From IMG/VR virus record IMGVR_UViG_3300017730_000004: a stretch of DNA of 20,000 nucleotides. One strand, written 5' to 3'. The DNA is from an uncultured virus (IMG/VR IMGVR_UViG_3300017730_000004) (taxonomy: Duplodnaviria; Heunggongvirae; Uroviricota; Caudoviricetes). Under the pieces are notes generated by a model, which saw nothing but the letters and a program-made list of their open reading frames with translations, was not told the origin of the DNA and searched no databases. Below are positions 214-17,303 of this stretch, piece by piece (the stretch's first letter is position 1; each line of letters opens with the position of its first letter). The position numbers and the translations under genes are program-made.

Positions 214-289
214 TGGTGGAGCTGACAGGGGTCGAACCTGCGACCTACTACGTGCAAGGCAGTCGCTCTCCCAACTGAGCTACAGCCCC
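214..289 (-). tRNA. tRNA-Ala(TGC)
   Basis: Reverse complement GGGGCTGTAGCTCAGTTGGGAGAGCG-ACTGC-CT-TGC-AC-GTAGT-AGGTCGCAGGTTCGACCCCTGTCAGCTCCA-CCA: 76-nt cloverleaf, G3:U70 Ala determinant, encoded CCA. Confidence 0.97.
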
Positions 290-296
290 AAAAATC

Positions 297-479
297 TTAT
301 CCGTTATTATCTATACTGGGTTTGTAAGATTTCTTCTTGGTTCTACTCTTATAAACTCTCTTCTTAGATTCATCAACATCGGGTGTTGATTTATCATCTG
401 CAACGTAACGACCTTTTGAGTCTCTTGCTCTGACAGTTTCGAAACCAAGGAAATCTGTAAATTTTGTCCAAAATCCCAT
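297..479 (-). CDS. Small basic phage hypothetical protein with RARDxKGRYxADDxSTPDVDE motif
   Basis: 60 aa, RBS GAGGA, late promoter TATAAATA just upstream. Motif recalled from marine phage hypotheticals; function unknown. Confidence 0.75.
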   Translation of the reverse strand: MGFWTKFTDFLGFETVRARDSKGRYVADDKSTPDVDESKKRVYKSRTKKKSYKPSIDNNG

Positions 480-5708: not shown

Positions 5709-5732
5709 AAAAAGTAAGGATTATTCCTTACT
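5709..5732 (-). terminator. Hairpin with short U-tract (probable weak intrinsic terminator) downstream of tRNA-Arg
   Basis: Minus strand AGTAAGGA-ATAA-TCCTTACT-TTTT: perfect 8-bp stem. Confidence 0.5.
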
Positions 5733-5734
5733 CT

Positions 5735-5741
5735 TATTTAG
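5735..5741 (-). promoter_or_regulatory. Late-type promoter CTAAATA
   Basis: Intergenic TAAATA core between tRNA-Arg and the oxygenase gene. Confidence 0.6.
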
Positions 5742-5756
5742 TGTGTTTAGAAATGG

Positions 5757-5833
5757 TGGCGGGACTGATAGGAATCGAACCTATAACCTACTGCTTAGAA
5801 GGCAGTTGCTCTATCCGATTGAGCTACAACCCC
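5757..5833 (-). tRNA. tRNA-Arg(TCT)
   Basis: GGGGTTGTAGCTCAATCGGATAGAGCA-ACTGC-CT-TCT-AA-GCAGT-AGGTTATAGGTTCGATTCCTATCAGTCCCG-CCA: 77 nt, A20 Arg determinant, encoded CCA. Confidence 0.96.
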
Positions 5834-6343
5834 TTAGTCACCATTTCTTAATACTTTAAGTTGTGCAATTGTATCAGCTGCACTAGTGTGTAGTATTCCA
5901 ATACCACCATGTTCTACCCATGCATCAAGGTTCTTTTGTCTGTCATCAATAAGGACACTTCCTTTGATTGCAAACATACCTTTCTGACTACCAGTCATAG
6001 TACAAGTAACAACAACAGTAGGACTAACATGTTCTTTAATCCACTCGTTCTTATCATACACAACCAACTCTCTGTTTATAACACCAGCTGCAGTGAGTAT
6101 TTCCCACGGTAGTTTAGTGTGTCTAACGTAACCAACCAATTCATGCATATCAGGCATAGGTGGTAACATTCTGAACAGTCTTTTGTTTGTTAACTCTTCC
6201 TTCCTTAAGTCATAGTCATTATGACCTTGGTCGGTGTTAGGGAATTCTCTCCCTGTTAGTTTTTCAACACCAGTGTTGAAATCGGCTAATACTCCATCCA
6301 TATCGATGAAGATTCTTTTTATCTTTACTCTCTTATTTTCCAT
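5834..6343 (-). CDS. HAD-family 5'(3')-deoxyribonucleotidase (NT5C-like)
   Basis: IFIDMDGVLADF motif I, ILTA motif II, VLIDD motif IV, W..HGGIGILH. Start reassigned to ATG 6343 because the ORF-track TTG at 6379 is the -35 box. Confidence 0.9.
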   Translation of the reverse strand: MENKRVKIKRIFIDMDGVLADFNTGVEKLTGREFPNTDQGHNDYDLRKEELTNKRLFRMLPPMPDMHELVGYVRHTKLPWEILTAAGVINRELVVYDKNEWIKEHVSPTVVVTCTMTGSQKGMFAIKGSVLIDDRQKNLDAWVEHGGIGILHTSAADTIAQLKVLRNGD

Positions 6344-6349
6344 ACGTAT

Positions 6350-6379
6350 AGTATAACACTCTTTCGGCCCTGTTGTCAA
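6350..6379 (-). promoter_or_regulatory. Sigma70-type early promoter
   Basis: TTGACA (6379-6374), 18-nt spacer, TG-n-TATACT (6355-6350). Confidence 0.8.
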
Positions 6380-6391
6380 GGCATTTCGGGC

Positions 6392-6802
6392 TTATTCCCA
6401 AAATATTTTATACAGTTTTTCTTCCTTTGCGTAGGCTTCTCGCTCCCAAGGTTGACGGCTATATGGTGCCTTAGAGTAGTCCTTTTTCTTCCATTTTTGA
6501 CGAACTGGACTGAGTTGTCCAGTTAAGAATTGTTTTGCATGAACTAATTCATGTGCAAGATTCAACATTTGGTCTTCTAGAGTGAATTCTAGTCCATTAC
6601 TACCACGTGCAATCTCTATAATGACCTCATCACGGTCACCCCAACATAAAGCATAGTGATTATTCTCACATCTAGTTATAACATTTAGTTCTATGGTTAT
6701 ATCCCTACGTAATTTAGGGGAAAGATAGGCAATACAGGACTTCACAAAGGTACGAATTCGACGTTTTTGTGCAATTTGACCATTTATTTGAATGTCAATC
6801 AA
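6392..6802 (-). CDS. HExxH zinc metallopeptidase-like protein
   Basis: LAHELVHAKQF plus PWEREAY (third-ligand Glu). Probable start is TTG 6802 behind an AAGGA RBS, since ATG 6835 abuts the -10 box. Confidence 0.78.
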   Translation of the reverse strand: MIDIQINGQIAQKRRIRTFVKSCIAYLSPKLRRDITIELNVITRCENNHYALCWGDRDEVIIEIARGSNGLEFTLEDQMLNLAHELVHAKQFLTGQLSPVRQKWKKKDYSKAPYSRQPWEREAYAKEEKLYKIFWE

Positions 6803-6835
6803 GGGGTAATGTTCCTTTCTTCTCAGTTGTGTCAT

Positions 6836-6865
6836 ATTATATCAAAAAATCTACCCTGTAGTCAA
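6836..6865 (-). promoter_or_regulatory. Sigma70-type early promoter
   Basis: TTGACT (6865-6860), 18-nt spacer, TG-n-TATAAT (6841-6836). Confidence 0.8.
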
Positions 6866-16855: not shown

Positions 16856-16931
16856 TGGAGCTCCCAAACCGATTCGAACGGTTGACCTACTGATTACAAA
16901 TCAGTTGCTCTACCAGCTGAGCTATGGGAGC
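16856..16931 (-). tRNA. tRNA-Thr(TGT)
   Basis: GCTCCCATAGCTCAGCTGGTAGAGCA-ACTGA-TT-TGT-AA-TCAGT-AGGTCAACCGTTCGAATCGGTTTGGGAGCT-CCA: 76 nt, perfect acceptor stem. Confidence 0.97.
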
Positions 16932-17303
16932 TTACAATTCTCTCAATCTTTGTGCAATCACATCGTCAATTGGTAATTCGGGTTCGAAGTCCTGTGTGAT
17001 GTAATCTAGGTATAGTAGTAAGGTTTTGATTGAAGACCAATATCTATCTTCTTTTATTTTGAATTTCAACATTCTCATACATGGTTCGTATCCAAATACA
17101 TTGAATAGACATATAAGATGATTGAGTAACAGGCGTTCTCTTAGTTCACCACTCTCATGGTATCTGAATAGTAATCTTTTAAGATATCTGAATCTACGTA
17201 AATCCTCTTGGAAGTCTTCCATGTCCTCACATTGAGGGTCATCATAGTGCTTCATAGCATATGCAGAAAAGTTTTTTGCTGTTAGTTTGTCAAAAAGACT
17301 CAT
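16932..17303 (-). CDS. Conserved T4-like hypothetical protein
   Basis: NF..YAMKHYDDPQC..FQEDLRRFRYLKRLL..GELRERLLLNHLI.LFNVFG. Recalled as conserved in marine T4-like phages. Confidence 0.82.
   Translation of the reverse strand: MSLFDKLTAKNFSAYAMKHYDDPQCEDMEDFQEDLRRFRYLKRLLFRYHESGELRERLLLNHLICLFNVFGYEPCMRMLKFKIKEDRYWSSIKTLLLYLDYITQDFEPELPIDDVIAQRLREL

Follow-up and report, generated by a model that had tools for sequence, protein, structure and literature searches.

The gene of a predicted deoxyribonucleotidase in an uncultured phage, which we assign to the T4-like group, very probably starts its message leaderless on its own ATG, and its stop codon abuts a tRNA-Arg gene. We consider it likely that a compact T4-like marine phage combines at this one gene two economies that are independent of each other, and that the zero gap between stop codon and tRNA is mostly the result of genome compaction.

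Genomic setting and gene product

The window, the whole stretch of 20,000 nucleotides analyzed here, sits in a viral contig of 45,649 bases that carries genes for a primase, NrdA and NrdB, a glutaredoxin, a spanin-like protein and many 2OG-Fe(II) oxygenases. NrdA of the contig was ~72% identical to cyanomyovirus enzymes; the nearest cultured matches were Synechococcus phages. A gp55 homolog is encoded in four related contigs (E 1e-19 or better); the window's own fragment has none. The NrdA identity and the gp55 homologs are the basis for classing the source as an uncultured T4-like phage. The RNA runs containing the contig were marine (21 runs). An assignment of the host from the 32-nt core of the tRNA was rejected, since many unrelated phyla were among the matches listed.

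The features of the region are compiled in Table 1. The nucleotidase ORF exceeded the cut-off of PF06941 in a profile search (40 bits, cut-off 24.8) and matched phrog_2643 (E 4e-34) as well as structures of the human cytosolic deoxyribonucleotidase (E 3e-6); no cultured match above 40% was found among the matches listed. HAD enzymes carry the catalytic motifs DxD near the N-terminus and DD near the C-terminus. Here, DxD was present at residues 14-16, with IDMDGV (13-18) aligned to the human enzyme, and LIDD near the C-terminus, read from the translation, represents the expected DD motif. The ORF 6343-5834 is thus annotated as an NT5C deoxyribonucleotidase with predicted dNMP phosphatase activity.

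The preceding gene on the same strand probably starts at TTG 6802 behind an SD-like AAAGGA, and the unit to which it belongs is the predicted source of read-through into the nucleotidase gene. Its protein (window 6392-6802) contains an HExxH-like motif, AHELVH, and matches phrog_10499 and phrog_16532. A role as effector was dismissed because the NCBIfam match of 19.4 bits against a cut-off of 150 is not meaningful. At 6386-6393, just upstream of the -35 box, the strain of RNA run X5 has 385 additional bases, and in locus L003 the upstream gene differs at the same site. Owing to this insertion and the different upstream gene, promoter and nucleotidase gene appear to behave as a cassette.

Table 1. 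Features of the window; positions count from its first letter
Feature	Positions	Strand	Remarks
tRNA-Ala(UGC) (289-214), 7 nt behind a 60-aa ORF	214..479	-	
Hairpin of 8-9 bp followed by a short U run	5713..5732	-	fold z -3.95; terminator scan lists + strand only
T4-type late box CTAAATA of the next gene (2OG-Fe(II) oxygenase)	5735..5741	-	kept in relatives, following the tRNA or the stop itself
tRNA-Arg(UCU), 77 nt, CCA encoded, G1 immediately past TAA	5757..5833	-	ARAGORN; Rfam RF00005 72.5 bits
NT5C-family 5'(3')-deoxyribonucleotidase gene, 169 aa (predicted)	5834..6343	-	PF06941, phrog_2643, human structures
Predicted transcription start, A of ATG	6343..6343	-	inferred; 6 nt past the -10 hexamer
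Extended -10 element TG-n-TATACT (hexamer 6355-6350)	6350..6358	-	
-35 hexamer TTGACA, host sigma70-type (early) promoter	6374..6379	-	same hexamer and 18-nt spacer in most homologous loci
Unit upstream of the nucleotidase gene: another strong sigma70-type promoter (6865-6836), gene of unknown function	6392..6865	-	
DUF7207 gene (17303-16932), then tRNA-Thr(UGU) (16931-16856), zero gap	16856..17303	-	

Promoter and start of the nucleotidase gene

On the minus strand TTGACA and TATACT are separated by 18 nt, the latter preceded by TG-n, and ATG 6343-6341 follows 6 nt behind the -10 hexamer. The promoter has 11 of 12 consensus matches, and no AGGA, GGAG or GAGG is found within 20 nt upstream of the ATG (read from locus L001, which is identical there). 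The sequence-only reading had described just this promoter, ending 6 nt before an ATG without a Shine-Dalgarno (SD) site, and the description is exact. Given the base composition, an 11/12 promoter is expected at a single fixed position with a probability of ~2e-5; weak promoter matches were not in excess across the window (63 versus 75.8 in shuffles). In the usual sigma70 geometry a 6-nt gap after the -10 box places +1 on the A of the ATG.

Comparative analysis covered 80 of 95 homologous viral loci. A promoter scoring at least 10 of 12 was present upstream in 70 of the 80, and the distance from the -10 box to the first in-frame ATG was exactly 6 nt in 62 of these 70 (34 of 41 without identical junctions). 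This gap was kept across homologs while the sequence of the 18-nt spacer and the upstream gene vary. For the SD comparison 53 distinct coding sequences were used, one truncated locus being excluded and the reading frame of one sequence corrected manually; 43 had an 11-12/12 promoter. An SD tetramer was found in none of the 36 genes with a 6-nt gap and in three of the seven with other gaps (Fisher p 0.003, with related rows), the three gaps being 25, 25 and 32 nt. Furthermore, 15 of the 36 six-nt-gap genes contained an in-frame stop inside the promoter spacer; there is therefore no conserved upstream start. No further in-frame ATG, GTG or TTG lies between 6343 and the catalytic aspartate. The TTG start at 6379 given by the ORF list was rejected, as it is the -35 box itself and relatives carry in-frame stops inside the promoter. 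The leaderless start proposed earlier is thus backed by comparison, and an N-terminus from an upstream start, named beforehand as evidence against it, is excluded in those 15 relatives. We regard a leaderless start at ATG 6343 as very probable.

RNA data were available as contigs from four of the 21 runs (X1, X5, X6 and X7), which show neither ends nor strand; they yielded no recurrent start or end positions. The promoter was crossed by the X1 and X5 contigs; the X6 contig ends at 6382 and X7 has a hole from 6319 to 6481, so that these two give no evidence on the start. The junction of stop and tRNA was bridged by the X5 and X7 contigs, both strain variants, with 48 and 33 nt, DNA carry-over being possible. 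The X1 contig extends 20 nt across the junction and X6 does not reach it. Two of the four runs thus bridge the junction by at least 31 nt, which is compatible with co-transcription of nucleotidase gene and tRNA, though the contigs may be DNA.

Leaderless layout within the clade

Six contigs, all incomplete, represent the clade: that of the window and five relatives. Sigma70-type matches followed by an ATG after 6-7 nt amounted to 34 of 198 in these contigs; T4 had 0 of 40 and S-PM2 had 0 of 56. Of the 391 late boxes (A/C)TAAATA in the six contigs, 67 were followed by an ATG at a distance of exactly 5 nt. For comparison, T4 had 1 of 96, S-PM2 1 of 80, Melnitz 3 of 60 and the SAR11 phage HTVC008M 12 of 64. 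These denominators also count chance matches within genes. In the available part of PMC2988020 the T4 late box is given as 8 bp beginning at -13, and a 5-nt gap therefore again sets +1 on the A of the ATG. Judged by this layout, the leaderless start appears to be a habit of the clade that extends over host-type early and gp55-type late promoters alike.

An example of the late form lies at 16843-16830 of the window, with the box 5 nt from the ATG, and about a dozen other such sites per 150 kb were seen in relatives. The clade shares the late leaderless layout with HTVC008M, not with T4 or S-PM2. A second class of late leader consists of box, hairpin, TAT(A/T)TT or TACATT and ATG, with no SD (window 17341-17303 and 5741-5700; L099, L105, L111 and L117). 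In several relatives the hairpin of this class encloses a CTATATA variant of the box, which recalls the read-through block of T4 gene e. The hairpin at 5713..5732 is possibly the 3' end of the precursor or a leader element of the late message.

The junction of stop codon and tRNA-Arg

The TAA at 5836-5834 on the minus strand is followed by G1 of tRNA-Arg at 5833 with zero spacer, precisely as first read. Of the 80 homologs, 13 had a tRNA following the gene, at distances of 0 (6), 1 (5) and 4 nt (2), and 67 had none there. The carriers correspond to 6 of 50 distinct junctions, and in the gene tree they are interleaved with tRNA-less relatives inside one well-supported group. Additionally, tRNA-Arg was located elsewhere in two related contigs. 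Variable stop-to-tRNA spacing in close relatives had been named beforehand as what would refute the sequence-only reading, and it was observed: with gaps of 0, 1 and 4 nt and the tRNA mostly missing, conservation of the zero gap has to be given up. It is likewise ruled out by the variable gaps at the tRNA-Thr junction and in the wider sample described below.

The tRNA itself looks functional, because pairing is intact across four very different acceptor stems: in the four tRNA-Arg versions compared, 84 of 84 cells were paired, with two-sided changes in 7 of 21 pairs. Phages whose nucleotidases are 87-93% identical differ completely in the first four acceptor pairs (window 5833-5827; L006, L015 and L028); the remainder of the tRNA is almost invariant among these four. 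AGA accounts for 326 of the 474 Arg codons of the contig (69%) and for 9 of 10 in the nucleotidase gene, and the three tRNAs of the contig correspond to the codons it uses most often for Arg, Thr and Ala. A promoter scan found no credible promoter between the ATG and the tRNA; the tRNA should therefore be cut from the nucleotidase transcript.

Other tRNA junctions and gap sizes

A zero gap is not rare: tRNA-Thr of the window likewise adjoins a stop codon. tRNA-Thr followed the DUF7207 gene in 32 of 55 homologous loci, with gaps of 0 (15), 1 (5), 3 (6), 5 (5) and 488 nt (1), and was absent in 23, two of them truncated. tRNA-Ala lay 5-19 nt behind its ORF in close relatives; in two contigs it shared 10 nt with another ORF. 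A wider sample started from 359 viral tRNA loci, of which 138 with short flanks, 21 duplicates and 50 in tRNA clusters were dropped; the 150 loci used included 96 with an upstream ORF of at least 100 codons, giving 67 combinations of upstream family and tRNA. The gap was 0-11 nt in 21 of these combinations and exactly 0 in 5, and 7 showed an overlap. A hard wall at zero is unsupported, given these overlaps of 1, 10 and 23 nt, some of which may be ORF-calling artefacts.

Other lone phage tRNAs were found at -10 to +11 nt from the stop, like ordinary gene gaps in these phages; the median ORF-to-ORF gap in three contigs was -0.5, 4 and 5 nt by crude ORF calls. A lone tRNA-Arg(UCU) with a gap of 0-11 nt occurred in 25 of 63 viral and 0 of 37 bacterial cases among the matches listed. 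We take the zero gap to be just one of a spread of short distances and probably no selected device. It is the commonest single gap at both junctions examined in depth (6 of 13 for Arg, 15 of 32 for Thr), and the two zero junctions of the window and L028 differ in both C-terminus and acceptor stem; this could reflect some preference.

At L582, L651, L609 and L592, where ORFs were called mechanically, position 1 of tRNA-Ala completes the stop codon (TA from the ORF, G from the tRNA). Cleavage by RNase P would there produce a message with UA as its last bases, which comes nearer to mitochondrial punctuation than the nucleotidase junction does. Other ORFs upstream of a tRNA take their TAG from tRNA bases 8-10 (G004:C1 near 67221, G003:C1 near 98935; L596, L599, L606 and L174) and are predicted to give non-stop messages after tRNA maturation. 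The ORFs ending inside a tRNA are alternative-oxidase-like and dioxygenase-like, names taken from reading their sequence. Where the gap was not zero, U was the commonest base at -1 (85 of 145 junctions). That RNase P requires this U was rejected, since most pre-tRNAs are without pairing of N-1 to A248 in the accessible text of PMC10465520, and a purine at -1 is no strong argument.

Proposed explanation

In the explanation that we favor, host sigma70 polymerase would initiate on the A of the ATG, a start site that we infer from a conserved layout, and the leaderless message would be translated without a Shine-Dalgarno site. The lone, promoterless tRNA-Arg(UCU), decoding the main Arg codon AGA, would ride on the early nucleotidase transcript, and deletions would have trimmed the spacer between stop and tRNA to 0-4 nt. 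RNase P cuts 5' of tRNA position 1. Host RNase P would thus have to cut at G1 for the tRNA to mature, leaving an upstream RNA that ends in UAA; with a start at 6343 this RNA would run from AUG to UAA. Such an RNA probably exists briefly. Having no protective 3' structure it would most likely be degraded fast, like secG mRNA, and protein would probably be made mainly from the uncut nascent precursor. It is the short life of secG mRNA after the RNase P cut that leads us to view the UTR-less RNA as a decay intermediate. The earlier claim of an mRNA running exactly from AUG to UAA holds in so far as RNase P biochemistry would produce this RNA at least transiently. It does not hold as the only form, because a strong upstream promoter, with no terminator found in between, means that longer messages from 6865 should be expected too.

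Alternative explanations

The gene might not be mainly leaderless, being expressed instead by read-through from the 6865 promoter or from a start few bases upstream, with A/U-rich, SD-free translation. The strength of that promoter, the lack of a terminator-like site on the minus strand from 6850 to 6343 and the X1 and X5 contigs spanning 6379-6343, which may be DNA, fit this idea. Nevertheless we give it a small chance: the promoter stays 6 nt away while spacer and upstream gene change, SD sites occur only at gaps of 25-32 nt, the spacer stops in 15 of 36 six-nt genes exclude an upstream start, and no alternative in-frame start precedes the catalytic aspartate. Even less credible, to the point of being very improbable, is that the tRNA has a transcription start of its own or is merely a decaying passenger, with RNase P never cutting the nucleotidase mRNA in earnest. 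In favor of this, the gene contains a weak 9/12 promoter match (6125-6096), two pairs of the acceptor stem are G-U, and the minimum-energy fold of the isolated tRNA is not a full cloverleaf. However, 9/12 matches are at chance level, four diverse acceptor stems that are all fully paired indicate a working tRNA, and the junction is spanned, by 48 and 33 nt, in contigs from two of the RNA-library runs, though these may be DNA.

The sequence-only reading had suggested that tRNA maturation might be coupled to translation termination or mRNA decay. As a selected function this would make the RNase P cut the working 3' end, and the zero gap would serve to link tRNA release with termination or to set when the early nucleotidase is shut off. 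While UAA occupies its A site, a ribosome would have the first bases of the tRNA in its mRNA channel; after the cut it would have 3 nt past the P site, and tmRNA or ArfA could compete with release factors. A length of 3 nt is within the range preferred by both, according to the part of PMC8012679 at hand, and a side effect of tmRNA or ArfA on the cut message is possible. Gaps of 1-5 nt behave much alike for tmRNA, and zero is therefore not special in that respect. Against such a function stand the absence of the tRNA from 67 of 80 homologs, in which the leaderless start is mostly kept, the frequency of gaps of 1-11 nt and of overlaps, which are as common as zero, the placement of tRNA-Arg elsewhere in two related contigs, and a search of the six incomplete clade contigs that found no phage tmRNA. 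We consider it unlikely, given the variable gaps and the mostly missing tRNA. No better is the standing of truly UTR-less messages, for which sigma70 or gp55 starts would fall on the AUG and RNase P would cut at tRNAs at or inside the stop, maturation timing the decay of early messages and part of the protein being tmRNA-tagged; this too is doubtful. The stops completed by tRNA position 1 and those at tRNA bases 8-10 would be its extreme form.

Comparison with known systems

With compaction as the preferred reading, the nucleotidase-tRNA arrangement is a modest variant of known things. The E. coli secG-leuU transcript is split by a single RNase P cut; secG mRNA retains a tail of 14 nt and has a half-life below 30 s (PMC2241853, in the part available). 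Both systems place an mRNA before a tRNA, so that one cut at tRNA position 1 makes the mRNA 3' end, and the phage gene likewise has an intact tRNA downstream of a CDS and without its own promoter. They differ in that tail and decay were measured for secG, whereas the 0-nt tail and the predicted leaderless 5' end here come from sequence alone. In T4 (NC_000866) the segB stop lies 5 nt before tRNA-Arg(UCU), the same tRNA species directly behind a protein gene of a T4-family phage; there, however, a spacer is kept, the tRNA belongs to a cluster, and the leaderless layout occurs at 0 of 40 sigma70-type and 1 of 96 late boxes. In 2031 genomes 250 upstream coding regions overlap tRNA or tmRNA genes, as stated in the portion of PMC4131195 consulted. 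tRNA maturation sets the 3' end of the upstream coding region in these overlaps as well, but their stop lies inside the tRNA and non-stop mRNAs are predicted, whereas the nucleotidase gene has a complete stop codon, the last base of which borders the cut. Further general background is given in the available parts of PMC2984593, PMC9004378, PMC7892883, PMC3014915 and PMC12801897.

Bacterial leaderless mRNAs have their -10 box 6 nt before the ATG and lack an SD. The same 6-nt, SD-free layout is found at the nucleotidase gene, with the difference that it belongs to an uncultured phage, includes early and gp55-type late promoters alike and concerns a predicted start. In animal mitochondria stable polyadenylated messages generally and necessarily arise by tRNA punctuation. 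A coding region abuts a tRNA in both cases, with little or no UTR, but here this is a single junction that is missing from most relatives: the tRNA accompanies 13 of 80 homologs, 6 at zero, and the 45.6-kb contig has three tRNAs. The likeness to mitochondrial punctuation drawn earlier is therefore a loose analogy, the more so as the E. coli mRNA freed by RNase P is destroyed and not matured. In a literature search of partial coverage, with no query aimed at stop-tRNA abutment alone, neither leaderless messages of marine T4-like phages nor a zero stop-to-tRNA gap in a phage were described.

If only compaction is at work, the gene neatly illustrates the loss of both leader and trailer in streamlined marine phages, and the leaderless habit of the clade, seen at late promoters, is extended to early ones of the host type. 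Were the AUG-to-UAA RNA stable, or protein output governed by the cut, no bacterial message could be smaller, and it would offer a natural test of the competition between release factor and tmRNA at a stop codon with nothing behind it.
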